In this document: piece after piece, positions 25,393-58,749 of the stretch | Layout of the letters: each line of letters opens with the position of its first letter | How positions within the stretch are numbered: position 1 is the first letter of the stretch | Virus record (IMG/VR): IMGVR_UViG_3300042473_000506 | Source of the DNA: a virus | Taxonomy: Duplodnaviria; Heunggongvirae; Uroviricota; Caudoviricetes | Reading direction: 5' to 3' (one strand) | Length of the DNA: 64,000 nt | Made by a program: the position numbers and the translations under genes | Notes under the pieces: model-generated | What the model was told of the DNA's origin: nothing | The model's database searches: none | The model's input: only the letters and a program-made list of their open reading frames with translations

Positions 25393-25421
25393 ATAATACA
25401 TTATTATTTAGGTTCAGTCAA
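25393..25421 (-). promoter_or_regulatory. candidate sigma70-type promoter TTGACT-N17-TATTAT upstream of folE
   Basis: Minus strand 'cTTGACTgaacctaaataataatgTATTATaatatac'; overlaps the 3' end of the UGDH-like gene. Confidence 0.35.
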
Positions 25422-37232: not shown

Positions 37233-37258
37233 GCTGCTCTCCTTGTTAATAAGTATAT

Positions 37259-37287
37259 ATTATAGCATGGATTTACCATGCTGTCAA
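37259..37287 (-). promoter_or_regulatory. sigma70 consensus early promoter TTGACA-N17-TATAAT upstream of the HD hydrolase gene
   Basis: Minus strand 'gTTGACAgcatggtaaatccatgcTATAATatatac'; spacer is a perfect hairpin gcatgg/ccatgc. Confidence 0.6.
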
Positions 37288-37514
37288 CCGGAAGTTTTAA
37301 CCACTTCCAGGATGGTAATTTCTACTACTAAATGCTTACGCAGTAGCATGAACTTTTTGAACTTGGCTTCTATGTCCGCCTGAATGTACTCGTCATGGTA
37401 AGGCATAGTAGCAACGTCCTCATAGGGTTCATCGTTTTCGTTTAACGCTATGAAACTGAGCTTCACTGTGCCCTGTTCGGGCTCTTTGAACATTTTAACA
37501 AATTTGTTGAACAT
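37284..37514 (-). CDS. hypothetical protein
   Basis: ORF. Confidence 0.3.
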   Translation of the reverse strand: MFNKFVKMFKEPEQGTVKLSFIALNENDEPYEDVATMPYHDEYIQADIEAKFKKFMLLRKHLVVEITILEVVKTSG

Positions 37515-37522
37515 GCAAATAT

Positions 37523-38068
37523 TTAGTGATGCCCTTTAATTTCGTTATCTTTAATCATACGAACTGCCCGATCCATGGAGATTACAATTTCCCCAGTTGA
37601 GTCCATACCCACATCCATGCAACGATATTTTTCCATGCCTGTAGTGCCACCGTGCAAGTGACCGTGAAAGTGCAGAGAACCACGATGCATCTGATCCCAT
37701 TCATAGATAGGATAGTGAAACATCACGCACTTGTGGCCATCATAGGTGATATCCAAATACTTATGTACTTCAACAAATGCATCGCGGAATGTTACATCCA
37801 TTAGGGTCTTGCGGTCATGGTTGCCTTCTACAAGGATCTTATCTCCGTTCAACCGATTCATCATTCGTCCAGCATCACTTCCTGACATAAACGCTACATC
37901 GCCTAAGATGTAGACTAAATCACCCGGCTCTACTTTGTCGTTCCATTCTTCCGCCATTGCGTTATTCATATAAGCAACATCGTCACGAAATCGTGCCCGT
38001 GTTTGCGGACAGAACTTCATAATGTTCTTGTGCCCGAAATGGAGATCCGAAGTAATCCAAGTTTTCAT
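37523..38068 (-). CDS. calcineurin-like metallophosphoesterase (Ser/Thr phosphatase-like)
   Basis: 'SDLHFGH', 'ILGDVAF', 'GNHD', 'HGH' metallophosphatase motifs in order. Confidence 0.7.
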   Translation of the reverse strand: MKTWITSDLHFGHKNIMKFCPQTRARFRDDVAYMNNAMAEEWNDKVEPGDLVYILGDVAFMSGSDAGRMMNRLNGDKILVEGNHDRKTLMDVTFRDAFVEVHKYLDITYDGHKCVMFHYPIYEWDQMHRGSLHFHGHLHGGTTGMEKYRCMDVGMDSTGEIVISMDRAVRMIKDNEIKGHH

Positions 38069-38103
38069 ATTATTTCCTATTATACAGCCAGTGACCTATA
38101 CCG

Positions 38104-38568
38104 TCAACTGGCATACCAAATTTCTTTAAACCCTTCTTCCTCAGTGGGCTCTTCCCAACTGGCAATCATGCTGGCAATAACATGATCCGGAATCTCTTTG
38201 CCAGGGCGGCTCATCAATCGGCGCATAAGTTCTTTGTGTTCAGGTGTCTTAAACACTATTGCAATATGCTCATAGTCAGGTAACATGTTAAACTTGCGAG
38301 TACGACTTGCAAGAGTAGTACTAGTTTGATCCCAGATAATATCTCGATTCATTTCACGAGCCGCAACAACTTCCTTGGCCATAAGGTCTACAGCAGTGGG
38401 CATAAAGTCTACAAACACTTCGCTGTAGGTGCGTCCTACTTCCTTTGCGTAGATTTCAACCCACTTGTCTGTGCTAATACAAGAGCAGGTCAACGCCCAG
38501 TCTTGTTCAGCCACCCAAGTACTTTTACCTGAACCAGGCACTCCAATCAATTGATAACATTTTGCCAT
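38104..38568 (-). CDS. P-loop NTPase / small nucleotide or polynucleotide kinase
   Basis: Walker A 'GVPGSGKST' at residues 9-17; 154 aa. Confidence 0.5.
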   Translation of the reverse strand: MAKCYQLIGVPGSGKSTWVAEQDWALTCSCISTDKWVEIYAKEVGRTYSEVFVDFMPTAVDLMAKEVVAAREMNRDIIWDQTSTTLASRTRKFNMLPDYEHIAIVFKTPEHKELMRRLMSRPGKEIPDHVIASMIASWEEPTEEEGFKEIWYAS

Positions 38569-39036
38569 TTAATCTACACTCCTAAAAGTTCGCCAATCGT
38601 CTATGTTTGGCTTTTCATCTTCATCATATGTCCAACCCAAAGCCTTCATCATGCGATGCTTGACCAATAGGTTGGGGCTACGGAATCTACCTGTGTCTTC
38701 AAAGCCCATCATAACACCAACTTCGCAAACTGCACCACTGCGGCAAATACCCGCATAGCAGTGAACAACTACATTCATACGGTTGTCCTTTGCGTGTTGC
38801 AACAGTCGAACAAGCTCGTTAGCCTGCTCTTGACTACATTTCATTGCTTCTTCCAACACTTCGTCCTTGGCCTCTACGTCCAAAAACTCAAAGTTGTGTT
38901 GCTCTTTAAACTTGTGAGCAGGCACAGGGCGCCAGCTGGCCGGATCAACAATGCTGATCAGCATACTGTTCTCACCTGCCTCATGATGAAACCTTGTGGG
39001 TATATCAGCGGCCGCTACGTTTTCAATCCATGGCAT
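38569..39036 (-). CDS. dual-specificity / tyrosine-phosphatase-like protein
   Basis: 'VVVHCYAGICRSGA' = HCx5R(S/T) phosphatase P-loop. Confidence 0.65.
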   Translation of the reverse strand: MPWIENVAAADIPTRFHHEAGENSMLISIVDPASWRPVPAHKFKEQHNFEFLDVEAKDEVLEEAMKCSQEQANELVRLLQHAKDNRMNVVVHCYAGICRSGAVCEVGVMMGFEDTGRFRSPNLLVKHRMMKALGWTYDEDEKPNIDDWRTFRSVD

Positions 39037-39353: not shown

Positions 39354-39905
39354 ATGAGATGTTTCTATAAATTAAAAATTAATAATCTAGAATCTATACA
39401 GGCACACGCATTATCTAAAATATCTGAAGAAGATCTTAATTTGATGCCAACTAGATTATTTTATCCAGAATATAATTTTTTAGATGATCAAGATCTCTTA
39501 TGTGCGTTAAATCAATACGGGTTGACAAATTATATACATAATGTTGCTCTTTTTGTTCTCAATTCAGGAGGCATAAGCCCTATTCATGTCGACGGGGATA
39601 ATGACTATAATTGGAGTTTAAATATACCTTTAAAAAATTGCAGATATACTCGAACTAATTTTTATCAATCTAATGAGGTTCCTGTTAAGAAAAAAAGTCC
39701 AAACAGTGATATAGAATACAGTATCTTTGATCCAAACTCTTGCACACTACTAGATTCTCTTCGATTATCTGATCCATTTTTAATGAATGTGTCAGTTCCT
39801 CACAGCATATCTAATCTTACTTTTACAACAAGAGTTTCTATATGTATAAGAATAAAATCTACATTTGACATAGAAGCCGCTCTGTCAGAATGGGATTTAA
39901 AATAA
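39354..39905 (+). CDS. small 2OG/Fe(II)-oxygenase-like (DSBH) protein, island paralogue 1
   Basis: 'SPIHVDGDNDYNWSLNIPLKNC' (HxD, NxPL) ... 'VSVPHSISN' ... 'RVSICIR' (distal His + Arg). Confidence 0.5.
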   Translation: MRCFYKLKINNLESIQAHALSKISEEDLNLMPTRLFYPEYNFLDDQDLLCALNQYGLTNYIHNVALFVLNSGGISPIHVDGDNDYNWSLNIPLKNCRYTRTNFYQSNEVPVKKKSPNSDIEYSIFDPNSCTLLDSLRLSDPFLMNVSVPHSISNLTFTTRVSICIRIKSTFDIEAALSEWDLK

Positions 39906-39912
39906 CGAATTT

Positions 39913-40452
39913 CTACATAATAAATTTTTCAAATCTACTTAATGCATCCTGCCATTTGAAATATTTCGAATTGTGTAATGATACTTTTATACTAACACAC
40001 CATCGAGGTGACGTTATATTTGATACGTTATGAGGAACACCGCTTTGAAATAAACACGCCCCTTGTAAGTTTACGGATTCGATTAACTGCATTTTATCAA
40101 TTTCGTAGTCTCTTTTCCAAGCTACACCATTGTGTTTCGGTAGTCCTGGATACTTATTAATTGATCTGTACCAGTTAACTAGACTATCATTTGCATTTAT
40201 ATAAAAATTTAAATTTGTTTGATCGTAAACGTTATAGTTGTCTATATGAATCGGGGAAGACGTGCTTTCCCCACTATAATAAATTATTAGGCCGTTTAGT
40301 CGAAAATCATCAATTTTCTTTAACAGTTCTAGCATATCTGGACTTAATATTTCTGTTATATGAGCAGTACCTAATTTCCATTGTTTTTCGCATACAAAAG
40401 ATTCGCTAAGAAACGGTACAGGAAATGACAGTTTTTTAAAATAATCGCTCAT
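39913..40452 (-). CDS. 2OG/Fe(II)-oxygenase-like protein, paralogue 2
   Basis: 'SPIHIDNYN...' ... 'SGVPHNVSN' ... 'RWCVSIK'. Confidence 0.5.
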   Translation of the reverse strand: MSDYFKKLSFPVPFLSESFVCEKQWKLGTAHITEILSPDMLELLKKIDDFRLNGLIIYYSGESTSSPIHIDNYNVYDQTNLNFYINANDSLVNWYRSINKYPGLPKHNGVAWKRDYEIDKMQLIESVNLQGACLFQSGVPHNVSNITSPRWCVSIKVSLHNSKYFKWQDALSRFEKFIM

Positions 40453-40515
40453 TCAAATATTTACCACCTAATTATTAATCGAGCTTTCTAGGAGTAATAA
40501 GAGCAGATAAATATT

Positions 40516-41082
40516 TTGATGAAATATTATAAAAAAATAGAAATTGAAAACTTAGAGGTAATACAGAAAAAAGTTTTACAATTTATTAAATTTAAACACC
40601 CCACTATATATTTTAGAAAAGTTGAGTCATCTTGGAACCATCTCGATGTTCCGAGTTTGTTGGCGGCATGCCCAGAACTTTCTGAGTCTTTCGGCAAATT
40701 GAATTTATCCTGCATTTTTGCGTCAATTCATATAATGTATGATAATACACATTCTGCTATACATACTGATATTACGCCCTGGAAAGCTAGAATTAACATT
40801 CCTATTTTAAATTGCAACGGAACATTTACTAAATTTTATACAGGTGAAAAGGTAGTAGAAGAAATTAGGACCATGGCAAATAATAAAACGTTTAAGGTAG
40901 ATGCAATTATAAATCCACTTGAATGTATTGAAGTAGACGCATACGAATTAACACAGCCGTTAATTCTTAAAACTTATATACCACATAGGGTTTTTATGAA
41001 TGAAACTTCGAGACCTAGAATAGCATTGTCAATTGGCTGCGATCCTGATCCATTCTATCAATATTTTTCGTCAGACGAATAA
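40516..41082 (+). CDS. 2OG/Fe(II)-oxygenase-like protein, paralogue 3
   Basis: 'SAIHTDITPWKARINIPILNC' ... 'TYIPHRVFMN' ... 'RIALSIG'. Confidence 0.5.
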   Translation: MMKYYKKIEIENLEVIQKKVLQFIKFKHPTIYFRKVESSWNHLDVPSLLAACPELSESFGKLNLSCIFASIHIMYDNTHSAIHTDITPWKARINIPILNCNGTFTKFYTGEKVVEEIRTMANNKTFKVDAIINPLECIEVDAYELTQPLILKTYIPHRVFMNETSRPRIALSIGCDPDPFYQYFSSDE

Positions 41083-41649
41083 ATCTGTAGTATCCACTAC
41101 ATCTTCAATATTTCTAAATTTAATAGGATGTAGTCCCCATCGCACGGTAAACATTATCCTTATATCATCATTAAAATTTTTAACACCATGCATGACATCA
41201 CCTTTAACAAAACAAGGCTTTGTTATCTCAAGGTCTTCGATAATTTCTAATTTAGAATTGTCTATAGGAGTTAGACCATGCAGGTAACTGCTTTGTACGG
41301 CACCCATGACTAGATTTTCTTTTGGACAATGATACCATAACATTTTTGTATTATGACAATTTAATACAGGAATATTTAATCCAAACGGTACTGTAATGAA
41401 TGAACTATCAACATGAGGAGCTAGCTCAGCATGCCCCGGTGTAAAATAAAACCTAAGTAATCGAATTTGACTTTTACTCCTCGACTTTAGCCACCTCATT
41501 AATTTTGGACAATGTTCAGTCATATGCTCTTCACTGAACGTACATGCATGTAGGCCTTTAGATGCATAATCATAATTAATAGATTTAATTAATTCGTGTT
41601 GAATCTCTTCAAAGTTGGGGATATGGATGTATCTATAAAGTTCTTGCAT
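41071..41649 (-). CDS. 2OG/Fe(II)-oxygenase-like protein, paralogue 4
   Basis: 'LAPHVDSSFITVPFGLNIPVLNC' ... 'GDVMHGVKN' ... 'RIMFTVR'; 3' ends of paralogues 3 and 4 overlap convergently by 12 nt. Confidence 0.5.
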   Translation of the reverse strand: MQELYRYIHIPNFEEIQHELIKSINYDYASKGLHACTFSEEHMTEHCPKLMRWLKSRSKSQIRLLRFYFTPGHAELAPHVDSSFITVPFGLNIPVLNCHNTKMLWYHCPKENLVMGAVQSSYLHGLTPIDNSKLEIIEDLEITKPCFVKGDVMHGVKNFNDDIRIMFTVRWGLHPIKFRNIEDVVDTTDLFV

Positions 41650-41694
41650 ACTTCCAAATATTTAGTAATAAATACTTTACAAACTTTAAAAATT

Positions 41695-42315
41695 ATGCTA
41701 CCTTCTATAACATTAAACCCTGATGATTATTATTATGCACTTAATCAGCCCTGTACAATCTTACCTCAACTATTAGAATATGTTCAAAGTGTAGAAGACT
41801 GGGAGGGATTAGATTGGCATACATTTTATTTAGATGTACCAAATAGGACTGCTTGTAATTTCGAATCAGATCCTGTAATTAAATTTTTTCTAGATCAGGG
41901 ATGGAGGTTAAACTTCACATGTATGCCCCCTAAGGGGCATTATCGATGGCATATCGATAATCAAGGAAATAGACAAACCGCAATAAATTTAGCACTAAAT
42001 GGTTTTGAAACAACTAAAGTTATGTGGCGACCAAATAGACCGTACGTGCGAAAAATGAATACAGAAATTATGGATATTCCCTACACACCTGGTACGTATT
42101 TTGTATTTAATACACAAGAGGAACATTGTGTAACTAATTTCAGTAATGAAAATAGATATCTATTAAGCATTACACCAGATAAAAGATTTGCTGTTCCTGA
42201 GTATTTTGACGGAATTTATAAAAATGTAAGTCCTAGTCGATACGCTGAAATTCTAAAAGGTTACAAGCTAGCATTTAAAGAGGTCGTTAGCGAAGTTAAA
42301 GCACAAGGTTGGTAG
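41695..42315 (+). CDS. 2OG/Fe(II)-oxygenase-like protein, paralogue 5 (start moved to internal Met)
   Basis: 'YRWHIDNQGNRQTAINLALNG' ... 'QEEHCVTN' ... 'RYLLSIT'; the listed ORF start (41596) overlaps paralogue 4 on the other strand. Confidence 0.45.
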   Translation: MLPSITLNPDDYYYALNQPCTILPQLLEYVQSVEDWEGLDWHTFYLDVPNRTACNFESDPVIKFFLDQGWRLNFTCMPPKGHYRWHIDNQGNRQTAINLALNGFETTKVMWRPNRPYVRKMNTEIMDIPYTPGTYFVFNTQEEHCVTNFSNENRYLLSITPDKRFAVPEYFDGIYKNVSPSRYAEILKGYKLAFKEVVSEVKAQGW

Positions 42316-42327
42316 TAGATTTTAAAT

Positions 42328-42936
42328 TCAGTCTTTCCATCTAATAGTATTCCAATCAAACATAAAATTTAAGTTAAGTTGTTCGTACGCTATCCATTGT
42401 TTAGTGTACTGAATATTAAGAGGAAAATCAATTACATTAAAATTATTATAAAATAGATGATGTAATTGTCTAGGTGATCGAGTTTCACCTAATCTTTTTC
42501 TTTTAAATGTTTCTATCAAATTTTTATTATAGTCATTAAATGTGATAGCAATAGCTTTACAATTATTGTCTATTGCCCATTGTTTGTGCATTGGTAAAAA
42601 AAGTTCTCTAGGTAATCCTAAATGTCGGTAATCTTTTGTAACCCATGTTCTACATCCGCCTATGGCAACTTCATTGGAGAATTCACTTCTATAAACTCCC
42701 GAACAGGCTACAATAGTTTCATTTTTTATCGCTAAGTGAAACGCTCCACTGGTTTCAAAATATCGATGCCTGTTGTATATTTGATGTATTAGTGTGTTAG
42801 ATTTAGTATGCCAATCTTCTACCCACATATTGCTGTGTGCTAGCTGAGTAATTTCTTCTGATGCCTCTTGACAAAATTTAAAAAATAAACTTTTATCCTC
42901 TAACTCGTCATACCGAATAAGTGTTAGATCAGACAT
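42328..42936 (-). CDS. hypothetical protein (possible acyltransferase fold)
   Basis: ORF between paralogues; no secure motif. Confidence 0.3.
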   Translation of the reverse strand: MSDLTLIRYDELEDKSLFFKFCQEASEEITQLAHSNMWVEDWHTKSNTLIHQIYNRHRYFETSGAFHLAIKNETIVACSGVYRSEFSNEVAIGGCRTWVTKDYRHLGLPRELFLPMHKQWAIDNNCKAIAITFNDYNKNLIETFKRKRLGETRSPRQLHHLFYNNFNVIDFPLNIQYTKQWIAYEQLNLNFMFDWNTIRWKD

Positions 42937-43477
42937 TGCTAACTAAATCTTCAAAATTTGGATTACCGTGAAATCTCATAGTAAATACCCACCGATCTTC
43001 GAGTTGATTTGATTGTGCTGAATGCGGACAATCTACTCTTAATAGATGAGGGCTGTCAATTTCTAATTTAAAATCTTCTGTATATGGTTCTTGCCACATA
43101 ATTTCATGATAAACGTTGTTGGATAACATTACAAGAGATGTGCTGTATTTTCCTTTATACCAAATTTGGTAACTGTTTTTACAACCTTTCAACGGAATGT
43201 TTATTGCAGATTTTATAATACCTTCTTCATTACCGTCTATATGAATACCTTGAAAACTATTCTTTGGTCTAATATAACTTAGACAATAGCGAACAGGAGG
43301 TATATTATACCTAGCTAGGTCTGCATCAATTATATGCTTTAATTGATTGTTGAGCTCGTGTCTTATTTGTATTTGTCTATCTACAGGAATTGAAGTATCT
43401 ATCTTTTTCTCTATATCTAAAATTGCAAATTCTTTTATAAGATGTTCGCATGTTAAATGAATTTTTTTACAGTACAC
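42929..43477 (-). CDS. 2OG/Fe(II)-oxygenase-like protein, paralogue 6
   Basis: 'QGIHIDGNEEGIIKSAINIPLKGC' ... 'VDCPHSAQSN' ... 'RWVFTMR'. Confidence 0.5.
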   Translation of the reverse strand: MYCKKIHLTCEHLIKEFAILDIEKKIDTSIPVDRQIQIRHELNNQLKHIIDADLARYNIPPVRYCLSYIRPKNSFQGIHIDGNEEGIIKSAINIPLKGCKNSYQIWYKGKYSTSLVMLSNNVYHEIMWQEPYTEDFKLEIDSPHLLRVDCPHSAQSNQLEDRWVFTMRFHGNPNFEDLVSNV

Positions 43478-43542
43478 GATGTTTATCGTAAAATTTTGGA
43501 ATATCTTTTATTTAACTCTCTGCAATTTTGTAATATAAATAT

Positions 43543-44169
43543 ATGAAACATATTATGATAGTAGCCACACCACTTAACCTTCCTACTGTAGTCCCTGACG
43601 ATTGGTCTGTATTTTGGAATATTTGGAACAATTATGGAAAACCTATAGTTAAAACGCAACAAAACCATAAGGGATCTTATTCAAAAATTGGAGATACAGA
43701 TGTCTGGAAAGGTTTAGATATCTATAAAAATAATTTATTTCGATCTGCATGGACTGCACCTTACTATGATATTCGAGAAGAACTTCCCTTAATGTATCAA
43801 ATGATTACAAAAATTCCTCTATTCTCTCTTGTCACTGGTGTTAGGGTTGTAGAAAGCCTAGGAAATATTCCGCCACACACTGATGATAATATAGATCGAT
43901 GGAACGTTAGAGCAATGTTGCATTATACTGATTCGAACCCTCAATGGTTTTTTACTAAACCGAATGATACAAAAACTGCTGTGTTGTTAACATTGCCAGA
44001 GTCCACTAATTGGTTTGCATATAACGATAAGTACACATGGCATGGGTCGAAGTATAACCCGGATCACCCTAAATTATTAATTCAAATGTTTGGAGTAGGA
44101 TTTAAGAACAGTCAGTTCCTACAAAAAAGTGCAGAAATGTACAAAGAATATACAATATCATATGACTAA
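43543..44169 (+). CDS. 2OG/Fe(II)-oxygenase-like protein, paralogue 7 (divergent)
   Basis: 'IPPHTDDNIDRWNVRAMLHY' ... 'KYTWHGSKYN'. Confidence 0.4.
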   Translation: MKHIMIVATPLNLPTVVPDDWSVFWNIWNNYGKPIVKTQQNHKGSYSKIGDTDVWKGLDIYKNNLFRSAWTAPYYDIREELPLMYQMITKIPLFSLVTGVRVVESLGNIPPHTDDNIDRWNVRAMLHYTDSNPQWFFTKPNDTKTAVLLTLPESTNWFAYNDKYTWHGSKYNPDHPKLLIQMFGVGFKNSQFLQKSAEMYKEYTISYD

Positions 44170-44950
44170 TTTATTTCAAGCTAGTTCAACTACTGTTAGG
44201 TATTCTCATATTGTAGCAAGGTTAGCAATTATTATAGGTGCATTCTTTGTAACATTTAATTTACCCTTATTACTTGTGTCTGCTATTGCATATCATGTTT
44301 TACTATCTATCGGTATAAGCATAATGATGCATAGATACTTCAGCCATAAAAGTTTTGAATTTAAAAATAATATTGTCAGAAAAGTTTTTATTATAATTTC
44401 ATTGCTTTCGTTGCGAGGAAGTCCAATAGCTTGGGCATACATCCATCGAGCACATCACGAACACGTAGATACCGAAGATGATCCGCATACTCCTGTTGGT
44501 AGAAAATTTAACTTTTTTGGATTACTTGACAACAAAAATAAAGCTGATGATATTCAGATATTTAAAATTAGATCTATGATGACCAAGGAGCACCTATTTA
44601 TTAATCAATACTATTGGTTGATCTTAGCATGTTTGTTAGTACCTTTTGCATTTATTAATTTTACATTATTTTATTATACATGGCTAGTTCCTGTAGTTCT
44701 TGTACAATTTTCTATTAATTTACAAAACTATTTAGGACATATGTCAGGTATAGGTGCGTATAGGACTTACACTAATCCATCTAGCGGCAATAGTCAAAAT
44801 AGTTTGTTATTGTGGCCTTTATATTTAGGTGAAGCGTGGCATAACAACCACCATGCACATGCTCGACATTATCACTACGGAACTGAAATAAGTGGAAAGT
44901 GGTGGGAGATCGATCCCGGTGCAATGCTCATTAAGTTACTGAAAAAATGA
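44162..44950 (+). CDS. integral-membrane di-iron fatty-acid desaturase / hydroxylase-like enzyme
   Basis: Three histidine boxes 'HRYFSH', 'HRAHHEH', 'WHNNHHAH' separated by hydrophobic spans. Confidence 0.6.
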   Translation: MTNLFQASSTTVRYSHIVARLAIIIGAFFVTFNLPLLLVSAIAYHVLLSIGISIMMHRYFSHKSFEFKNNIVRKVFIIISLLSLRGSPIAWAYIHRAHHEHVDTEDDPHTPVGRKFNFFGLLDNKNKADDIQIFKIRSMMTKEHLFINQYYWLILACLLVPFAFINFTLFYYTWLVPVVLVQFSINLQNYLGHMSGIGAYRTYTNPSSGNSQNSLLLWPLYLGEAWHNNHHAHARHYHYGTEISGKWWEIDPGAMLIKLLKK

Positions 44951-45507
44951 TACGATTTTTAACAATGGATGACTTGCCGGATTGCATGAAAATTGCACCA
45001 TTAAAAAATAGAACCGGTGGCACTGTTCCATTAACACTCGAAGGATTTTTAGGTGCCTTTGAAAAATATTTCCAGGATGATGAATTTTGCCGTGTGATTG
45101 GATACTTTGAAAATAATGAACTTGTTAGTTTTGTATGTATCAGAATGTTCGAAACTACGATGAGAGGAAAATTTTGGGTTATTTCGGGATTATATACTAA
45201 GAATTTTAAAAGTTATTTTAGCTTTAACCATTCAGGAATAGGCGAATTAATTAAATTTGCATTCGATTATGCTGAATCACGAGGTTGGTATGAATATTAT
45301 TATTGCACTGCCGAACGTGTAATAAATGTATATGAAAGACAATGGAAACGATCACACTCTCATAGATACGAACATATATTGTTAGACGTTGTTCCACCTA
45401 ATACAAAACCATTTTATGAATTGCACTGGAGACTAATGGGGCAAGAAGTTAAACCTGTCCCAATGATTGTTAAAAAGCGAGCGTTAAAACAAGAATTTAG
45501 AAAATAA
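44947..45507 (+). CDS. hypothetical protein (GNAT-like acyltransferase fold possible)
   Basis: 186-aa ORF; beta-alpha pattern only. Confidence 0.3.
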   Translation: MIRFLTMDDLPDCMKIAPLKNRTGGTVPLTLEGFLGAFEKYFQDDEFCRVIGYFENNELVSFVCIRMFETTMRGKFWVISGLYTKNFKSYFSFNHSGIGELIKFAFDYAESRGWYEYYYCTAERVINVYERQWKRSHSHRYEHILLDVVPPNTKPFYELHWRLMGQEVKPVPMIVKKRALKQEFRK

Positions 45508-45553
45508 AAATCAGTTATTTTATCCTATAAATATAATGCTCATAGGAAACTAA

Positions 45554-46330
45554 ATGAACACAGCATTTTTATCTAGCAGCACTAGGGGTGCTCAACTATT
45601 CTTGATATTAAATTTAATAGGTACTTTCGGTGCTGTCTGGTTGTACGGATTAAATTTTAATTCTTTTATGATGGTACTAGTGGGATACTTTTTATATGGT
45701 TGTTTAGGTATCGTCGTAACTTATCACAGAAATCTTTCTCACAATAGTTATAGAACACATCCGATCATTGTAAAGATATTTTCATTATTAGGATGCTTTG
45801 CAGGGACCGGCAGTCCACTTGCATGGGTGGCCATTCATATCAATCATCACTTAAAGAGTGACAAGCCTACTGATCCGCATAGTCCGTTATACAAAGGGGT
45901 AAAGATCTTTATGATGGATTATATAAATGAAGTTGATAAAGATACAAAATGGAGAATGAGGGCATTAGTCACTGACAGATTCCAGCAATTCCTACATAGA
46001 TATTATTTTGCAATCATTGCAACCTATAGCCTTGTACTATTTTTAATAGGAGGATTTTGGTTGATGGTATTTTTTCATTGGGCGCCTGCTGCAATGACCG
46101 CCCTTATGAGTAATGTTGTTAATTATGTGGGACACAAACCAAGTTGGTGGGGTGGATATAGAACACACAATCTAAATGATCAAAGTACAAATAATTGGCT
46201 ATGGGCTATTCCTAGTTGGGGGGAAGCGTGGCACAACAATCATCATAGATATCCTAGGAATTTTAGTTTTGGAAACAAGTGGTGGGAGATTGATATTTCG
46301 GCACTTGTAATTAGATTGATTAAAATTTAA
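45554..46330 (+). CDS. integral-membrane di-iron desaturase / hydroxylase-like enzyme, second paralogue
   Basis: Histidine boxes 'HRNLSH', 'HINHHLKSD', 'WHNNHHRYP'; same C-terminal 'KWWEID' as 44162..44950. Confidence 0.6.
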   Translation: MNTAFLSSSTRGAQLFLILNLIGTFGAVWLYGLNFNSFMMVLVGYFLYGCLGIVVTYHRNLSHNSYRTHPIIVKIFSLLGCFAGTGSPLAWVAIHINHHLKSDKPTDPHSPLYKGVKIFMMDYINEVDKDTKWRMRALVTDRFQQFLHRYYFAIIATYSLVLFLIGGFWLMVFFHWAPAAMTALMSNVVNYVGHKPSWWGGYRTHNLNDQSTNNWLWAIPSWGEAWHNNHHRYPRNFSFGNKWWEIDISALVIRLIKI

Positions 46331-47202
46331 TGAAATTTAATAGCAAACATCCAATTGTGGCTATGCCCATGAATGGAGTATCCAATGTTGACTTAGCTAT
46401 TGCTGTAACTCAAGCGGGTGCTGTACCTAGTTTGTCAATCTTTAATTATTATGAAGGTGGAAAAGTAAATCTAAAGCATGTAGATGCCAGTTTAAAAAGG
46501 TTTACAGATGCAACCAGTTCTACAGAAATAATTTTAAGTATGCACTGGGAACATTTTATATGGACTCCTGTTATAGATGTTCTATTAGAAAATAATATAA
46601 AATTAGTTGAACTTTTTATTAGACCATCAGATCATCATTTGTGGCCTGAATTATCTAAACAGATCGACAATATGAAGGTACACGGTATAGCTGTAATGTT
46701 TAAAACTTCTAATCGGCTACCTATGTCCTATTTTGATTCGATAGTATTGAAAGGTCCTCAGGCTGCTGGGAGATCATTCGGTAGTCTAGTATCATTAGAA
46801 GATCGATATGATGCTATGAAAGAACAAGTAGGATCAAGAATCATTCCAAGCGGTGGTATTGGCAGTCCTGAACAGGTAAAATATTTTATGGACAGAGAAG
46901 CATTAGCTGTGGGTATTGGCACACTACTTGCAGCATCTGAAGAAAGTTGTGTGTCAAGCGATACTAAACAAAAAATTATAGAGTCCACATCAAAAGATAT
47001 CAAATTAATAGGTCCGTTAAATTGCAGAGGGCTGTTATTTTCTAGACTAGAAAATGACGACGATAACAATTCCAAATCTCTATATGAGGGTATCAAGGGA
47101 ACTAATTCCGGATGCATCTATGTAGGCAACGGAATAGACTATATAAACAAAATAATGCCAGTAAAAGATATAATAGAGTGGTTAGTTAAAGATGTTAATT
47201 AA
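46330..47202 (+). CDS. FMN-dependent nitronate monooxygenase / FabK-like TIM-barrel oxidoreductase
   Basis: 'PIVAMPMNGVSNVDLAIAVTQAGAVPSLSIF' and 'IIPSGGIGSPEQVKYFMDREALAVGIGTLL' parallel the NMO/FabK FMN-binding blocks. Confidence 0.55.
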   Translation: MKFNSKHPIVAMPMNGVSNVDLAIAVTQAGAVPSLSIFNYYEGGKVNLKHVDASLKRFTDATSSTEIILSMHWEHFIWTPVIDVLLENNIKLVELFIRPSDHHLWPELSKQIDNMKVHGIAVMFKTSNRLPMSYFDSIVLKGPQAAGRSFGSLVSLEDRYDAMKEQVGSRIIPSGGIGSPEQVKYFMDREALAVGIGTLLAASEESCVSSDTKQKIIESTSKDIKLIGPLNCRGLLFSRLENDDDNNSKSLYEGIKGTNSGCIYVGNGIDYINKIMPVKDIIEWLVKDVN

Positions 47203-48358
47203 TAAGTTACTGGGCTATTATACATGTGACGGTTTAGAATTTGAATCAAAAATTCAAGCATGTTTTCATTCTCTTAAAGTCAACAAGCCAGTTGACTGGG
47301 TCTTTAATGATTTAGAATTTAGCATACACGACTGGACTAAAGAACCAGAAGAAACATTAGACCAATTATATGATAAACGAGTGAGAGATCTGCGAGCAAA
47401 ATACGATTATCTTATTTTAAGTTACAGCGGCGGCGCTGATAGCCATCAAATTTTAATGAGTTTTATTAGACAAGGTATACACTTAGATGAGCTGCTAATC
47501 AACACAATGGAAAAAGGTTGGAAACCTTATACTAGTTTAGATCCTAGAAATGTTTCTAGTTTGAATTCAGGGGCCGAGCATTACCTACAAACTATTCCAA
47601 GACTAAAAGAAGTAGAGCAGTTTATTCCAAAAACAAAGATTACAATCTGTGATCTAACTGATCAAGTTAACGATTCATTATTGTCAGTAGGTGATGCAAG
47701 CTGGGTATTGCAAAAAAGAGAAGCATTGAATCCTATAGGAATTACTCGATTTAACTATGTATACTTTGATGAAGTTCGTAGACTGTTTGATAAAGAGAAG
47801 AAGATAGGTATTATACTTGGAGTAGAAAAACCTAAAAGCATTATCCATGAAGGTCAATTTTGGATGAGATTCAATGATCGATCAGCTAACATGGTTACAA
47901 TTGTCGATCACATAAAAGATTACGACAACAGTGTTATTGAATATTTTTACTGGAGCCCTGAGTGTGTGCCATTATTAATCAAACAAGGACATGTGATAAA
48001 AAGATGGCTAGAATTAAATCCTAATTATCAGCAATACTGGAACACTAAAACTTCTAGTTATGCTTCTGTAAGATTTTGGCATGAGAGATTATTAAGAAAA
48101 GTTATGTATCCGACAACTTGGAATAATTCTTGGTTTCAAGTGCATAAAGCAACAAAAGATTGGTATAGCGAATTTGACAATTGGTTCATCGAAGGAAGCG
48201 TTAAAACAAAAGCCAATGTCATATGGCATGAGGGCATTGATTATGTTAGGAATTCTTTAACTCCATTTTTGAGATACGATTTAGAAACAAATCAACCAGA
48301 CGGATTACAATCCTTTGTTAAACAATATTTAATTGGTAGAGTTGAAACACGGTCTTAA
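47192..48358 (+). CDS. PP-loop ATP pyrophosphatase (adenine-nucleotide alpha-hydrolase superfamily)
   Basis: 'LILSYSGGADSHQILMSF' SGGxDS motif. Confidence 0.55.
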   Translation: MLINKLLGYYTCDGLEFESKIQACFHSLKVNKPVDWVFNDLEFSIHDWTKEPEETLDQLYDKRVRDLRAKYDYLILSYSGGADSHQILMSFIRQGIHLDELLINTMEKGWKPYTSLDPRNVSSLNSGAEHYLQTIPRLKEVEQFIPKTKITICDLTDQVNDSLLSVGDASWVLQKREALNPIGITRFNYVYFDEVRRLFDKEKKIGIILGVEKPKSIIHEGQFWMRFNDRSANMVTIVDHIKDYDNSVIEYFYWSPECVPLLIKQGHVIKRWLELNPNYQQYWNTKTSSYASVRFWHERLLRKVMYPTTWNNSWFQVHKATKDWYSEFDNWFIEGSVKTKANVIWHEGIDYVRNSLTPFLRYDLETNQPDGLQSFVKQYLIGRVETRS

Positions 48359-49263
48359 TCTTTTGTTTTGATCTTATTTTCTAAAATAAATTTTCTAATA
48401 TTGTCATTATAATTCAACGATTCTTTAATCTTAGATTTATCAGTATCTGATTTGAAAAATAATCCTATATCAGTAAGCCCTTGCTTATATTCTGCTGATT
48501 GAAATATTGTTTTTAGATCAGCTGTAATTTTACCTTTAGTATATTCATCCATAGTCTTAGGAACAATTACTGAAAGATAGCTTTGGAATGGGAACACTTC
48601 TTTATAAAAACTTTCCCATGTTGATGTTTTTAATCCAACAGCATGACTAGTTAATAATAATTTTAAATTTTCGTGATTGGTGTAGGCTTTAACTGTCGGG
48701 TAGTTGCCAAACATACAATCAACATGCCCGCCAACTAAATCTAATACAGACTTATTTCCCCCTTGAGCATAGGGAACGACGATATGATTGTTTTTAGTTT
48801 TTGATAGTAATACTTCAGTGGCGATATGTTCGGAAGACCCATAACCTCCAACAGCAAAGGACAATGATTTTTTAGTATTGATAAAGTCTTGATAGGATGT
48901 TATTCCTGTTTTAGCATTACAGAGTAATGCAGAGGGCATAATTCCTATAGTGGCCAGCACTTCTAAATCAATTTTGTGATCGTAATTTAAGTCGTTAAAA
49001 TTGATAGGGTTGGTAACAAAAACTTGAACTACAGTAGCCAGTAGCATAGTTTTTTCATTCATTAAATGACCCATAGCAATTTTGCCAGATGCTCCTGGCC
49101 GATTGACTACTACATATTTTTTATCTAAGTTTTTAGCGATATACCGTGTTGTGATATCGCTCACACCACCGGGAGCGTGCATAACTGTAAACTCTAATGA
49201 TTGAGCTACTGCAACTTTTGAAAAAAATAAAATTAATAAAAGAAAAAATTTGTTGATTAGCAT
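48355..49263 (-). CDS. secreted TctC/Bug-family-like solute-binding protein
   Basis: Signal peptide 'MLINKFFLLLILFFSKVAVAQS'; 'HAPGGVSDITTRYIA...VVNRPGASGKIAMGHL' resembles the TctC 'PAGGGTD...V.N.PGAGG' signature. Confidence 0.45.
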   Translation of the reverse strand: MLINKFFLLLILFFSKVAVAQSLEFTVMHAPGGVSDITTRYIAKNLDKKYVVVNRPGASGKIAMGHLMNEKTMLLATVVQVFVTNPINFNDLNYDHKIDLEVLATIGIMPSALLCNAKTGITSYQDFINTKKSLSFAVGGYGSSEHIATEVLLSKTKNNHIVVPYAQGGNKSVLDLVGGHVDCMFGNYPTVKAYTNHENLKLLLTSHAVGLKTSTWESFYKEVFPFQSYLSVIVPKTMDEYTKGKITADLKTIFQSAEYKQGLTDIGLFFKSDTDKSKIKESLNYNDNIRKFILENKIKTKD

Positions 49264-49281
49264 GATATATAAATATTCTTT

Positions 49282-49848
49282 ATGTACTTCTCATACTTAT
49301 CTCTTCCAAGATTACCTAAAGAATTTTTTGCTCAATGTTTGGAAAATGTAAAATACATTGGTGTAGATCCTAGACTAGAAAATGTTAATAGTTATCGAGG
49401 GCCAATGAATCGAGCTACGTATCTGCCCGAAGAATGTAATACATGGATTATTAGAAATATTGTATTTCCGTTATATGGAAGTATTCCTTCAACTCTAAAA
49501 TTAAATTTATTAAATGTAACTACATACCAAAAGTTAAAACCTCAAGAAGAGACATGGGGTACACACCCTAAACATATCGACAAAGGCAGAAACTGGGCAT
49601 TAAATTATTATTTTACCACTGGTGGAAGTAATACTACCGTTAGGTGGTACGAAGATAATGTTGTGGCAGCAGAAACACCACCTATAGAAATTAATAGATG
49701 GTGTTTATTAAAAGTTAATCAACTACACGATGTTAGAGGAATTGAAGAAGGTCAAATTCGATATTTTTTAACATTGAATATTTCTTCTGAAAATATAGAT
49801 AATTTTAAATCAGTAATTGATCAAAATACAGTGATTGAAAAAAAATGA
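49282..49848 (+). CDS. 2OG/Fe(II)-oxygenase-like protein, paralogue 8 (divergent)
   Basis: 'HPKHIDKGRNWALNYYF' ... 'NQLHDVRG' ... 'RYFLTLN'. Confidence 0.4.
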   Translation: MYFSYLSLPRLPKEFFAQCLENVKYIGVDPRLENVNSYRGPMNRATYLPEECNTWIIRNIVFPLYGSIPSTLKLNLLNVTTYQKLKPQEETWGTHPKHIDKGRNWALNYYFTTGGSNTTVRWYEDNVVAAETPPIEINRWCLLKVNQLHDVRGIEEGQIRYFLTLNISSENIDNFKSVIDQNTVIEKK

Positions 49849-51377
49849 CAGTAGATTGTTTGTTACTATATGGTAATCATTTATTACCTATGTCTAAATA
49901 TGCGGGAACATTTCGAATTGCTAGCGAGTTAAGAAATGCAGGCTATACTGTTCAGTGTATTGATATGACAGCGTATGAAGACAACCGTGAAGAACTCATC
50001 GATACAATAAAGATGTTTATAGGTAATAATACATTATGGGTGGGAATTAGTACAACCTTTTTGCGTCATGTATTTGGATATCCCTATTTTCGTACGATAG
50101 ATTCATTTAATGTAAAATCTACAACTATCCCAAATATTGATAAAGAAATTTTAAATTTTATTAAAACCGTTAAGGATATTAATCCAAACGTAAAATTTAT
50201 TGCCGGTGGCTCGAAAAGATTTATGATCGAGAAATACGGTTTTAAAGTTTTTACAAAAAATAATGATACTGAAATTATTGAGTTTACAGATTATTGTGCA
50301 AAAAAATCTAAAAAAATACCAGTAAGTTTTTTAGAATCACTGATTGAAGGTTCAGAATTTCAACAGTTTACAACAAGCCAAAATATCTTTACTAAGAACG
50401 ATATTGTCGAATCGTCAGATACCCTTCCTATTGAAGTTAGTAGAGGTTGTATTTTTAAATGTAAATTTTGTTCATTTCCACTTAATGGTAAAAAGAAAGG
50501 CGAATGGGTTAAACGTTCTAATGTATTGTATGAAGAGTTTATAAAGAATTATGAGTTGCATGGAGTAACAGAATACAGTTTTTCCGATGACACATACAAT
50601 GATAGTGAAGAAAAAGTTAAAAGATTGTATGACGAAGTGTATAGTAGGCTACCATTTAAATTAAACTTTACTACATATTTGAGACTTGATTTAATGATAA
50701 AATTTCCCGACACAGTGAAATACTTACAAGAGTCAGGTTTAAAATCAGCAGTCTTTGGTATAGAAACAATAAATCATAATTCAGGTAAGGCTATTGGCAA
50801 AGGTTTAAATCCCATTGAACAATTTCAGTTTATTGAAGAAATTAAAAAAAATGAATTTAAAGAGATACTAACTCGTTCTGGATTTATATTAGGGTTGCCA
50901 AAAGACAGACACGACGAGATTAATATCCTAGAAGAATTCTTATTTTCAGAAAAGAATAAATTAGATGACTTTAGTGTAGAACCTTTGATTATATTTCCTC
51001 CAAAATTTGATCAAACAAAATTTAAAGATTTTTCTGAATTTGATATAGAATATGAAAAATATGGATATAAGATTTATGAAAACATCGAAACATCTTCTAT
51101 TACTGAAATTAGATGGACCAACGATTATATCGGAATGACTTTTGATCAAGTAGCTAAAGCTGCAAAAAAAATAAATGTAAGAAAATATTTCGATGGTAGA
51201 TTCAAGTGCGGTGGATTTGGTTACAATTGGCATAGGTCTCTCGGAATTCCAGCAGATGATCTAGTGGCACTGAGTCGGAATGAAATATATACAAAGTATA
51301 ACGTCAAACAACTGCTAAAAACAAAAAAAGATAATTATCGATCATTAATACTTAATGTAATGAAAAATAATGAATAA
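49845..51377 (+). CDS. B12-binding-domain radical SAM enzyme (class-B rSAM-like)
   Basis: N-terminal Rossmann-like B12-binding region then 'SRGCIFKCKFCSF' CxxxCxxC cluster; 'TYLRLDL', 'ESGL..A.FGIE'; paralogue of 62063..63565. Confidence 0.65.
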   Translation: MTVDCLLLYGNHLLPMSKYAGTFRIASELRNAGYTVQCIDMTAYEDNREELIDTIKMFIGNNTLWVGISTTFLRHVFGYPYFRTIDSFNVKSTTIPNIDKEILNFIKTVKDINPNVKFIAGGSKRFMIEKYGFKVFTKNNDTEIIEFTDYCAKKSKKIPVSFLESLIEGSEFQQFTTSQNIFTKNDIVESSDTLPIEVSRGCIFKCKFCSFPLNGKKKGEWVKRSNVLYEEFIKNYELHGVTEYSFSDDTYNDSEEKVKRLYDEVYSRLPFKLNFTTYLRLDLMIKFPDTVKYLQESGLKSAVFGIETINHNSGKAIGKGLNPIEQFQFIEEIKKNEFKEILTRSGFILGLPKDRHDEINILEEFLFSEKNKLDDFSVEPLIIFPPKFDQTKFKDFSEFDIEYEKYGYKIYENIETSSITEIRWTNDYIGMTFDQVAKAAKKINVRKYFDGRFKCGGFGYNWHRSLGIPADDLVALSRNEIYTKYNVKQLLKTKKDNYRSLILNVMKNNE

Positions 51378-51426: not shown

Positions 51427-52347
51427 ATGGAAAGACATAATCAATGGATGAGCTACAGTTTTGATGCTATAGAATATGGCAAAAAAACTGATTCAAATTC
51501 TATTTTTAAAATTCATTTTAATAAAAAAATAGATAAAAATCTCCCTTCTTATAGAGATGCATTATTTAATAATGCCCGTATTATGCGAGACTCGTATAAT
51601 GAACCATTTGATGTAATGTTGTCAGGCGGAGTTGATAGCGAAATGGTTGTGCGAACATTTCATGCTGTGGGAATTAAACACAATACATTTATTTTTAGAT
51701 TAGAAAATGATTATAACATTCGAGATGTTAATTATGCCATAGCTGTTTGTAAAGAACTAAACATTAATTATAAAATAATAGATTTTAATTTACAAAAATT
51801 CTTCGAAAATGATGCACTTGATTTATTTCAAAAGACACTAATTCCAAGATCAGGAAGAATAGTGAGACTTGCGTGGTTTAACTATCTTGATAATATTCCA
51901 GTTTTTTGTGACGGTGAACCCTACTGGCGCAGGGATGCAAATAAAGATTTTAGTAAAAAATCTACGTGGAGATTAATTTTAAACGAAGACGGATACTCGT
52001 GTTCTACCTATGCTAAATCAATTGGTAGAGTAGCGATTGGGGATTGGTATGAATATACCCCCGAATTGTTATTGTCATACAACGAATTGCCGTTAGTTAA
52101 AAAATTACTCAACGACGAAATCTCAGGGAAGATTAGTTCCTGGAGTAGCAGGTCTGCTATTCACAGAGATATCTGGCCTACTGTACAGGATAAAATAAAA
52201 TTAGCAGGATACGAAGGTGCAGACGGCAATCCTGTATTGAGTCGTCCGGATTTTATGAATCACTTTCAGGTAACGTATATGAATCAAGTGTCCAATACTC
52301 ATTACGAATATACTGAAGAAGAACTAAGAAATTTAATCCTTAATTAG
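51427..52347 (+). CDS. asparagine-synthetase-like PP-loop amidotransferase domain protein
   Basis: 'FDVMLSGGVDSEMVVRTF' followed by 'FCDGEPYW' (compare AsnB 'SGEGSDEVFGGY'); paralogue of 55967..56896. Confidence 0.5.
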   Translation: MERHNQWMSYSFDAIEYGKKTDSNSIFKIHFNKKIDKNLPSYRDALFNNARIMRDSYNEPFDVMLSGGVDSEMVVRTFHAVGIKHNTFIFRLENDYNIRDVNYAIAVCKELNINYKIIDFNLQKFFENDALDLFQKTLIPRSGRIVRLAWFNYLDNIPVFCDGEPYWRRDANKDFSKKSTWRLILNEDGYSCSTYAKSIGRVAIGDWYEYTPELLLSYNELPLVKKLLNDEISGKISSWSSRSAIHRDIWPTVQDKIKLAGYEGADGNPVLSRPDFMNHFQVTYMNQVSNTHYEYTEEELRNLILN

Positions 52348-53172
52348 ATTTTCTCGGACCCAACGTCCCCAATGTATACAATGATACTCGTATTTTGATA
52401 GTGATTCGGTAACAGGAAAGAATTTTGTTTTTATCTTTTCGATCGCAGCAACATCTTCCCTAAACACAGTTTCTAATGTTTCAAATTCGATACGATCATT
52501 ATGTGGAACATCAGGGGCATAATAGAATTGTGTAATCCATTCGAATTTCCATTCTATATTTTTATCTGCAGGAACAATAGTGTTTACTGACAGGCATCCT
52601 TTCTTATGCTCGACAAAGGTGTAGGGGTATATATAGAGTGACCACCAACCTGGAGAATGTTCTTGGAATATCCATCCATCTCCTTGATCCATAACAACAT
52701 TATCTAAATCAATTTGTTCAGAGAGTCTCGGATGAATTCCATCCTTTTGTACATGTAAATAATCTGCTTCAGCATCCATGAGCCATAACCAGCTTCCCTC
52801 GCTTTTACCTTGAAGAGAATGACTATATTCTAGCGTTGTTTCTTTTTCCAGATCATCGACCCATTGATGGTCTGGTTCGATAAAATCTTTAAATACTAAC
52901 CCTGATCGACCAACAGTTGCAGTCCCACAATTTAATTTTTTAGAATTATTAATTGGTGTGCCATTTGCATCCCATTGAAATCCGTGGAACTTACATGTAA
53001 TGCTGTTGATATGTGTTCCTGGATCAGCTAGTGGATACATTCTGTGGGGACAAAATCTGTGAAATAAATTTACTATATTACCTTGTTTATTTAGAATATA
53101 TTCAGAAACTGCAAAGTTCTTGTCCTGCAATGCACTGAGATGAGCAAAAATTTTAGGAGATTTAATAAACAT
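52333..53172 (-). CDS. Rieske [2Fe-2S] non-heme-iron oxygenase
   Basis: 'CPHRMYPLADPGTHINSITCKFHGFQW' = CxH-x16-CxxH Rieske motif. Confidence 0.6.
   Translation of the reverse strand: MFIKSPKIFAHLSALQDKNFAVSEYILNKQGNIVNLFHRFCPHRMYPLADPGTHINSITCKFHGFQWDANGTPINNSKKLNCGTATVGRSGLVFKDFIEPDHQWVDDLEKETTLEYSHSLQGKSEGSWLWLMDAEADYLHVQKDGIHPRLSEQIDLDNVVMDQGDGWIFQEHSPGWWSLYIYPYTFVEHKKGCLSVNTIVPADKNIEWKFEWITQFYYAPDVPHNDRIEFETLETVFREDVAAIEKIKTKFFPVTESLSKYEYHCIHWGRWVRENLIKD

Positions 53173-58674: not shown

Positions 58675-58749
<75 letters not shown>

Follow-up and report, generated by a model that had tools for sequence, protein, structure and literature searches.

Membrane desaturases of the Δ9 type are already established as phage genes, with examples in cyanophages (the vFADs; PMC5776448), pelagimyophages, Nitrospirota phages and the phage Mosig. 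Expressed in yeast, cyanophage vFAD-I and vFAD-II introduce a double bond at carbon 9 of C16 chains (Roitman et al. 2018, PMC5776448); they were described as one gene per contig, clustering in sequence next to the two marine picocyanobacterial DesC types, and read as fluidity or photoprotection genes (PMC5776448). Pelagimyophages possess a hypervariable 'host recognition cluster', and stearoyl-CoA desaturase and fabF genes occur in the freshwater ones (PMC7029224). Here we describe a pair of desaturase genes in a 64,000-nucleotide stretch of Caudoviricetes DNA (IMG/VR record IMGVR_UViG_3300042473_000506; hereafter the window), namely Des1 (44162–44950, + strand, ATG start, 262 aa), a fast-evolving 'dependent' paralogue, and Des2 (45554–46330, + strand, 258 aa), the conserved paralogue. 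Both are Δ9-type membrane di-iron acyl desaturases as judged by family and metal site, and both lie in a low-GC island at ~39–58 kb (~32% GC versus 40–45% in most of the flanking DNA). We consider it quite possible, and propose tentatively, that the pair carries out two sequential desaturations on one acyl chain within a conserved, late-expressed phage lipid-tailoring module.

Like the cyanophage vFADs, Des1 and Des2 are three-His-box membrane proteins of the DesC Δ9 type, encoded by T4-like myophages of aquatic habitats. Unlike the vFADs as these were described, they form an obligate pair, belong to a phage-only clade and reside in units with genes for GNAT-fold, Fe(II)/2-oxoglutarate (2OG) oxygenase, FabK-like and PP-loop proteins. 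The best cyanobacterial matches to Des1 and Des2 are 30–34% identical, which speaks against their belonging with the vFADs, DesC homologues of the picocyanobacterial Δ9-3 or Δ9-4 type; the comparison with the vFADs is by description only. Among GenBank phages, a genuine homologue was found in Mosig only. A match labelled 'Acinetobacter phage MD-2021a' (L097, CAKLQH020000002.1) looks bacterial chromosomal, carrying trpB, trpC, btuB, baeSR and aidB, and was discarded as phage evidence. In the cultured Pelagibacter phage Mosig EXVC030M (L098, record positions 52768–67313), the gene order Asp_Arg_Hydrox–desaturase–aminotransferase–FMN reductase–peroxiredoxin–TauD–methylase–GNAT–Asp_Arg_Hydrox lies by the tail-fibre genes, with three MoaA-like radical SAM genes beside the desaturase region. 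As in the window, this is a T4-like aquatic phage in which a short FA_desaturase gene directly follows an Asp_Arg_Hydrox/2OG-type oxygenase gene and has an FMN reductase near it. The Mosig desaturase, however, is single, 216 aa long, 23–25% identical to the window proteins and shorter at its N-terminus, and the locus has neither a Des1/Des2 pair nor FabK-like and PP-loop neighbours.

Side-by-side paralogous desaturases of the same Pfam family that cooperate on one chain are found in bacterial polyyne cassettes (cay/pgn; PMC9828172, PMC8406139). Compared with such a cassette, the window has two desaturases only and no acyl-AMP ligase (FAAL), acyl carrier protein (ACP) or thioesterase beside them; box 3 reads HNNHH in both Des1 and Des2 versus QNNHH in one enzyme of the polyyne cluster at locus L014. 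Our literature search found no description, in phages, of an obligate desaturase pair, of GNAT/2OG/FabK/PP-loop units, of a link to late promoters or of desaturase arrays with ACP and ketosynthase (KS). Until now, desaturases of phages have been interpreted as lone genes that tune membrane fluidity, whereas the evidence below points to a conserved module.

Both proteins matched Pfam FA_desaturase (PF00487) above its gathering score of 29.7 bits, Des1 with 49.7 bits (E 6e-13) and Des2 with 60.1 bits (E 4e-16), and they are paralogous, aligning end to end at 32% identity (E 2e-39). The order HxxxxH/HxxHH/HxxHH is kept in each, as H57RYFSH62, H95RAHH99 and H227NNHH231 in Des1 and as H58RNLSH63, H95INHH99 and H227NNHH231 in Des2, with box 3 in the context GE(A/G)WHNNHH and followed by a WWE.D motif. 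A ninth histidine (H193 in Des1, H194 in Des2) plus an asparagine completes an SCD1-type metal site, and the N-x3-H element of both proteins aligns with the 'NSAAH' segment of SCD1. The only significant relatives of solved structure were mouse and human SCD1 (4YMK, 4ZYO), which matched over nearly the full length with E values of 1e-9 to 2e-11 (4ymk, 2e-10 for Des1 and 2e-11 for residues 12–252 of Des2). SCD1 and the phage proteins share the eight box histidines, the ninth histidine, the asparagine and the order of two hairpins, but the latter are ~100 residues shorter and ~25% identical; nothing points to acyl-CoA as what they act on, and cytochrome b5 is excluded as their source of electrons. 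The NCBIfam DesA equivalog NF049918, a model of 385 residues, returned 67.8 and 90.7 bits over model positions 12/22 to 232, below its equivalog cut-off of 400 bits, and on these scores Des1 and Des2 are related to that equivalog and not members of it. Pseudomonas DesA and cyanobacterial DesC share family and motifs with them (GEGWHNNHH, WWE.D), whereas the phage proteins lack ~130 extra residues of DesA.

Neither protein matched FA_hydroxylase, AlkB or a CrtW/CrtZ-type family, Pfam and NCBIfam giving FA_desaturase and weak DesA matches only. By family and metal site, Des1 and Des2 can be securely assigned as minimal (~260 aa) Δ9-type SCD1/DesC-like integral-membrane desaturases, predicted to be catalytically intact. 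An earlier note on this DNA had claimed two paralogous three-His-box membrane di-iron enzymes, which is borne out by the PF00487 scores, the mutual identity and the presence of all boxes. Among the enzyme classes it had named, fatty-acid desaturase stands, specified as Δ9/SCD-DesC-type; AlkB, CrtZ and sterol hydroxylase do not, given the lack of an FA_hydroxylase match and SCD1 as the sole solved relative. LpxO, which it had suggested as a His-box comparator, falls outside the His-box enzymes, being a 2OG/Fe Asp_Arg_Hydrox protein with a fold other than that of Des1 and Des2.

Membrane topology was assessed from hydropathy, the positive-inside rule and collinearity with the solved SCD1. In both proteins a hydrophobic stretch at ~12–57 (two helices) ends at box 1, and a hydrophobic hairpin at ~145–188 precedes the N-x3-H element and box 3. 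The two short inter-helix loops contain no lysine or arginine, the His-bearing domains 13–14 and 6–7, and the layout is collinear with that of the SCD1 structure, in which two transmembrane hairpins carry cytosolic His domains. We predict four helices in two hairpins, with the iron ligands on the K/R-rich, hence cytoplasmic, face; both His-bearing domains would be cytoplasmic because they are K/R-rich. In this prediction the His boxes fall neither in transmembrane cores nor away from the cytoplasmic face, the arrangements that the note had named as damaging to its proposal, and instead lie outside the hydrophobic segments in two K/R-rich domains, facing the cytoplasm as in SCD1.

Relatives of the pair are abundant in viral and metagenomic DNA. 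Metagenomes yielded over 1000 homologues of Des2, with identities of 71–86% for the 120 best, and an exhaustive search of representative sequences returned 6033 clusters at E<1e-3, the best being mostly 245–275 aa long and 33–45% identical. In IMG/VR, more than 559 viral stretches encode desaturase relatives. Across 158 distinct viral homologues the nine histidines are invariant, the exceptions being two truncated sequences and two in which H227 is replaced by Gln; in Des2 numbering, H194 is kept in all 158 and N190 in 118. Such abundance and invariance speak against a chance origin of the His-box pattern. Among the genomes of 185,579 species there was no relative above 35% identity. Cellular matches included Omnitrophota, Gemmata, DesA-like gammaproteobacterial enzymes and a Pseudomonas polyyne cluster, while plasmid-borne cyanobacterial and 'acyl-CoA' desaturases were 27–34% identical. 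The cellular relatives at loci L012–L017 share no other island gene with the window, and there was no indication that a bacterial cluster had been transferred wholesale. As far as their sequences indicate, the viral relatives are predicted active enzymes under purifying selection, which make up a largely phage-specific radiation of short Δ9-type desaturases.

To describe pairing and companions we used a census of 90 viral loci, each comprising a desaturase with 10 kb on either side. A single desaturase gene was found in 45 loci, two in 25, three to four in 15 and five to nine in five. Distance clustering separated a Des1-type clade from the Des2-type clade and from a sister group, cluster 34. 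Wherever a Des1-type gene was present (24 distinct loci), a Des2-type partner lay within five genes, and in 20 of these loci within two; the two were on the same strand in 23/24 and Des1 came first in 20/24. Des2-type genes occurred without Des1 in ~10 loci. Orthologues of Des2 have a mean pairwise identity of 66% and those of Des1 of 45%, Des2 being the more conserved in 114 of 120 locus pairs.

The genes around the pair also recur. Six co-directional + strand genes at 43543–48358 are packed with overlapping stops and starts (44162/44169, 8 nt; 44947/44950, ATGA; 46330, 1 nt; 47192/47202), in an arrangement that is operon-like and appears to form two units, one of 2OG oxygenase, Des1 and GNAT, the other of Des2, FabK-like reductase and PP-loop ATPase. 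The first gene (43543–44169, +, 208 aa), whose 3' end overlaps the start of Des1 by 8 nt, encodes an Fe(II)/2-oxoglutarate oxygenase fold protein with a modelled double-stranded beta-helix and an HxD...H iron triad, as in LpxO-type proteins, and without an Asp_Arg_Hydrox profile match. The start of the third (44947–45507, +, 186 aa) overlaps the Des1 stop codon (ATGA); its product has a confident GNAT fold, as had been supposed for the small gene between the desaturases, and no Pfam match, with a weak Acetyltransf_1 match in 1 of 27 homologues. The CoA-binding motif R/Q-x-x-G-x-G/A is degenerate there: the window protein has NHSGIG, the family consensus NRPEFG. By profile comparison, this protein is unrelated in sequence both to a second GNAT protein of the window (42328–42936) and to the 43543–44169 product. 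At locus L009 (8782–9978), a 398-aa open reading frame (ORF) fuses a GNAT-fold domain like that of 44947–45507 to a 2OG oxygenase domain like that of 43543–44169, which could be a Rosetta-stone link or an artefact of assembly or frameshift.

In the second unit, the start of a gene for an FMN oxidoreductase of the NMO family (46330–47202, +, 290 aa) overlaps the Des2 stop codon by 1 nt. The protein matched Pfam NMO above threshold (E 4e-14) and the NCBIfam FabK and PfaD models weakly, and its best solved relatives are FabK enoyl-ACP reductases (top match 5gvh, residues 6–288, E 2e-5). The unit is closed by a PP-loop ATPase-like protein (47192–48358, +, 388 aa), which has no Pfam match and whose motif SYSGGADS was read from the sequence; of the 20 close loci, 15 have it conserved 3' of the two desaturases.

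More widely, the most frequent companion is a further PP-loop ATPase (51427–52347, +, 306 aa; motif LSGGVDSE; weak Pfam QueC, tRNA_Me_trans and NAD_synthase matches at the PP-loop), found in 18/20 close and 14/70 distant loci. The second GNAT protein mentioned above (GNAT202; 42328–42936, − strand, 202 aa; Pfam Acetyltransf_1 at 22.2 bits against a cut-off of 20.7) is present in 17/20 close and 17/70 distant viral loci. A Rieske [2Fe-2S] protein (52333–53172, −, 279 aa; Pfam Rieske, E 9e-8), with weak matches in the PDB to Rieske oxygenase alpha subunits, recurs in 11/20 close loci and may be an oxygenase or carry electrons. Other common companions are the 2OG oxygenase and GNAT-fold proteins and a B12-binding radical SAM enzyme. 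The window copy of the last (49845–51377, +, 510 aa) matches Pfam Radical_SAM and, always below cut-off, NCBIfam B12-radical SAM lipid and methyltransferase families; its counterpart lies directly downstream of Des2 in L001, L003, L006–8, L025 and L027. A few kilobases upstream of the pair, relatives carry NifU-like, rubrerythrin and rubredoxin-like genes (L001, 773–2121; the 378-kb contig of P0035), which are absent from the window and may supply iron-centre assembly or electrons.

Promoter motifs would place the two units with the late genes. A T4-type late-promoter-like motif, TATAAATA, stands ahead of the 2OG oxygenase–Des1–GNAT unit (43534..43541, +) and again 21 nt upstream of the Des2 start codon (45526..45533, +). 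It occurs four times on the + strand of the island (43534, 45526, 49268, 53192), in every case in intergenic DNA, which makes up 3.7% of the island, and just 5' of + strand units. In 89 related viral loci, 107 of 177 occurrences of TATAAATA touch intergenic DNA (5.4% of the sequence), and desaturases are the family most often immediately downstream. The tail-fibre genes of the window are preceded by AATAAATA, present upstream of 6006 and 7637 (−), whereas rIIA and the early-type HD, kinase and phosphatase genes close to it have a near-perfect TTGACA-N17-TATAAT (upstream of 35910, 37232, 38068, 39036 and 18382, −). Scans of the island for sigma-70 promoters and terminators gave background levels. 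From these patterns we infer two promoter classes in the window, with the desaturase units in the late class because they share the TATAAATA-type motif class of the tail-fibre genes.

Taken together with the pairing, these features suggest how the module might work. Des1 and Des2 would insert into the host inner membrane late in infection, where each would take two hydrogens off an acyl chain, consuming O2 and two electrons. 'Second' desaturases depend on what a Δ9 enzyme has made, as with DesC and DesA of cyanobacteria, and the Des1 type, never found without the Des2 type, resembles them in this dependency; the sequential model is drawn from that likeness. An enzyme of Des2 type would accordingly introduce the first cis double bond and one of Des1 type the second on the same chain, which might be carried by a phospholipid, by ACP or by an N-acyl amino compound. 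Besides the two units, the module would include the second GNAT, the PP-loop ATPase, the Rieske protein and the B12 radical SAM enzyme, and its output would be an acyl lipid with two double bonds and perhaps other modifications, probably something beyond a simple increase in mono-unsaturated bulk phospholipid. Host ferredoxin or flavodoxin, the adjacent FabK-like flavoprotein and the nearby Rieske protein are speculative candidates for the electron source. Some bacterial Δ9 desaturases (DesB, DesA3) are encoded beside their own oxidoreductase, and by analogy we speculate that the FabK-like flavoprotein and the Rieske protein, and the FMN reductases of Mosig too, serve as the desaturase's own redox partners, although those beside Des2 belong to families other than the known partner reductases.

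Desaturases of the same radiation also occur in large arrays on related contigs. At L010 (848–11599) and at L011 (2461–11611, on the contig of L002, IMGVR_UViG_3300013006_001903), 8–9 desaturase genes stand in tandem, nearly all with full His boxes and all in sub-clades other than those of Des1 and Des2. The arrays include an 80-aa ACP with the motif LGGDSLD (jackhmmer from an E. coli AcpP seed, E 5e-26), a ketosynthase with Pfam KS N and C domains, an ATP-grasp enzyme and an ORF assigned by eye as holo-ACP synthase-like from its AcpS-like N-terminus. A further array ORF, without a Pfam match, is 38–39% identical to the Mosig protein annotated as an aminotransferase, and another is rubrerythrin-like by similarity to an L001 gene with a Pfam Rubrerythrin match. 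ACPs were also found near desaturases in L006–8, L019, L039 and L091, lying within 7 kb of them in L006–8 and L019; in L006–8 the ACP adjoins a PP-loop gene and is itself two genes from a desaturase. L001 carries a FabD-like acyltransferase. The L010 and L011/L002 arrays look like a phage-borne, carrier-protein-dependent lipid pathway, and with the ACPs nearby they suggest that pathways dependent on a carrier protein, like that of polyyne synthesis, employ at least some of the phage desaturases in this radiation.

Several points weigh against sequential desaturation in a tailoring module. The order 'Des2 first, Des1 second' is drawn only from co-occurrence; activity, substrate and product are predictions; and the late-promoter motif was assigned by its fit to a consensus and not by mapping of transcription starts. 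The phages behind the type-I loci are probably all related, and shared gene order among them may partly reflect common descent and not functional coupling, and the island is hypervariable, with unrelated-looking cassettes (TctC binding proteins, small oxygenase-like paralogues, radical SAM). Searches with known seed sequences found no ACP, AcpS, rubredoxin or plant-type ferredoxin in the 64-kb window, which also lacks a thioesterase and a FAAL, and only ~6 of ~85 viral loci have an ACP within 10 kb of a desaturase. Single phage desaturases acting on bulk membrane lipids, moreover, have experimental precedent (PMC5776448). This last point bears on a doubtful but serious alternative, that Des1 and Des2 are two independent membrane-fluidity genes, Δ9 acyl-lipid desaturases acting on host phospholipids in the manner of the vFADs, with unrelated cassettes as neighbours. 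The paralogues would then differ only in chain-length or head-group preference, paired to raise unsaturation, for example in cold water, an explanation of the pairing that we also find somewhat unlikely. Precedents for such genes are the C16-specific Δ9 activity of vFAD-I and vFAD-II (PMC5776448), the stearoyl-CoA desaturases of freshwater pelagimyophages (PMC7029224) and the acyl-CoA desaturase of Lake Baikal Nitrospirota phages (PMC7678222), to which are added the single desaturase in half of the viral loci (45/90), the missing ACP, ligase and thioesterase and the other envelope-related genes of the window (sugar enzymes, D,D-carboxypeptidase, SPFH protein). Independent fluidity genes would not, however, be expected to show the constant Des2-type partner of the Des1 type (24/24 loci) or translationally coupled units in which GNAT, 2OG oxygenase, FabK-like and PP-loop genes are tied to the desaturases, nor should such companions turn up again in Mosig and at distant loci. 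Fluidity also offers little explanation for arrays in which as many as 9 paralogues stand with ACP, KS and AcpS, and Des1 and Des2 are only ~30% identical to any cellular DesC, whereas vFAD genotypes match two marine picocyanobacterial DesC types.

The arrays bear in turn on a thiotemplated specialized metabolite, in which a chain bound to a carrier (host ACP, or a phage ACP elsewhere in the ~376-kb genome) would become a polyene- or polyyne-like fatty acid, set free or conjugated to serve as toxin, signal or surface lipid. ACP, ketosynthase, AcpS and ATP-grasp accompany the desaturases of L010 and L011/L002; ACP lies close by in L006–8 and L019, the FabD-like acyltransferase is present in L001 and a FabK/PfaD-like reductase directly follows Des2. 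Cellular relatives include a canonical Pseudomonas polyyne cluster, FAAL–Des–Des–ACP–Des/TE (L014), and three desaturases cooperate on an ACP-bound chain in polyyne synthesis (PMC9828172). Nevertheless, we judge this quite unlikely for the window: ACP, AcpS, FAAL and thioesterase are missing from it, polyyne desaturases (~29% identity) resemble Des1 and Des2 no more than common DesA- or DesC-like enzymes do, a pair of desaturases could yield no more than a diene or one alkyne, and the array loci represent other desaturase sub-clades. Chemistry of another kind, or a non-acyl substrate, appears highly improbable. The His-box superfamily is chemically versatile and the island is full of oxygenases, but a hydroxylase, ketolase, alkane hydroxylase, carotenoid or sterol enzyme or lipid A hydroxylase sits poorly with the box pattern, with its GE(A/G)WHNNHH and WWE.D motifs, with SCD1 as the sole significant solved relative and with family matches confined to FA_desaturase and weak DesA, LpxO having another fold. 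Of the functions offered in the earlier note, lipid tailoring by the island, towards a lipid-tailed product, fits the pairing, the operon structure and the ACP/KS arrays best, whereas remodelling of lipid A finds no specific support.

A more specific form of the lipid-tailoring module, which is possible although we have considerable doubts about it, would make the pair the core of a late phage lipid pathway, in which a chain held on ACP or amide-linked by a GNAT is desaturated twice and then oxidized, methylated or ligated. The 2OG, Rieske, radical SAM and PP-loop enzymes would then produce a lipo-amino acid or a polyene- or polyyne-like acid, and the arrays of 8–9 desaturases with ACP, KS and AcpS would be elaborated versions of the pathway. 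Such a lipid could act as a toxin or signal at lysis, deter superinfection or grazing, or modify the envelope or virion. If the module does tailor lipids, abundant aquatic phages would make or modify specific lipids, a class of virus-made metabolites in lake and ocean chemistry, and part of the large oxygenase and radical SAM islands of T4-like aquatic phages would gain a function. Cultured Mosig, with its simpler version, would offer a tractable laboratory model for such islands.

The phage context assumed in the earlier note is supported by genes for rIIA, rIIB, baseplate and tail-fibre proteins, which have relatives in T4-like cyanophages, and by 18 tRNA genes at 58676–64001 (−). DNA searches of GenBank phages, near and distant, matched neither the desaturase locus nor the window's first 20 kb. 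Identical copies of Des1 and of the GNAT-fold protein are encoded on 43–67 public contigs, the longest of 279,820 and 376,391 bp, and the source is probably an abundant uncultured T4-like jumbo phage of ~376 kb, judging from cluster metadata. A reading of the locus as defence or anti-defence was dropped, as PADLOC models matched no desaturase or unit partner and gave only a weak radical SAM match.

In addition to the desaturases, the island holds ~8 small HxD...H paralogues, two GNATs, four PP-loop ATPase-like proteins, two TctC-type proteins and the Rieske, FabK-like and B12 radical SAM proteins. The PP-loop (SGGxDS) proteins, of the family most often found beside phage desaturases, are encoded at 47192–48358, 51427–52347, 53785–55077 and 55967–56896, the last being 50% identical to the second. 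The small HxD...H proteins (180–260 aa; 39354–43477, 49282–49848 and 57298–58080), five of them detectably paralogous, are probably further 2OG/Fe-type oxygenases; a weak Pfam 2OG-FeII_Oxy_3 match was obtained among them for 41596–42315 only. The two TctC/Bug-type periplasmic solute-binding proteins (48355–49263 and 55074–55970, both −) have N-terminal signal peptides, and the window contains no TctA or TctB partner. Ahead of the island, an early-promoter cluster at 36696–39036 (−) encodes an HD-domain protein, an AAA_33 kinase-like protein and a dual-specificity phosphatase-like protein. An envelope gene run at 9649–32398 (−) comprises a nucleotide-sugar epimerase (11476–12411), a D-Ala-D-Ala carboxypeptidase (21893–22726), a UDP-glucose dehydrogenase-like protein (25404–26237), glycosyltransferases (27778–28533 and 29840–30862) and an SPFH/Band 7 protein (31601–32398). 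Outside the island, a second B12 radical SAM gene (62063–63565) and several small ORFs are embedded in the tRNA array, including a 76-aa ORF (60528–60758, −) of the RNA polymerase omega/Rpb6 family (Pfam E 1e-13), an RpoZ-like protein unusual for a phage.

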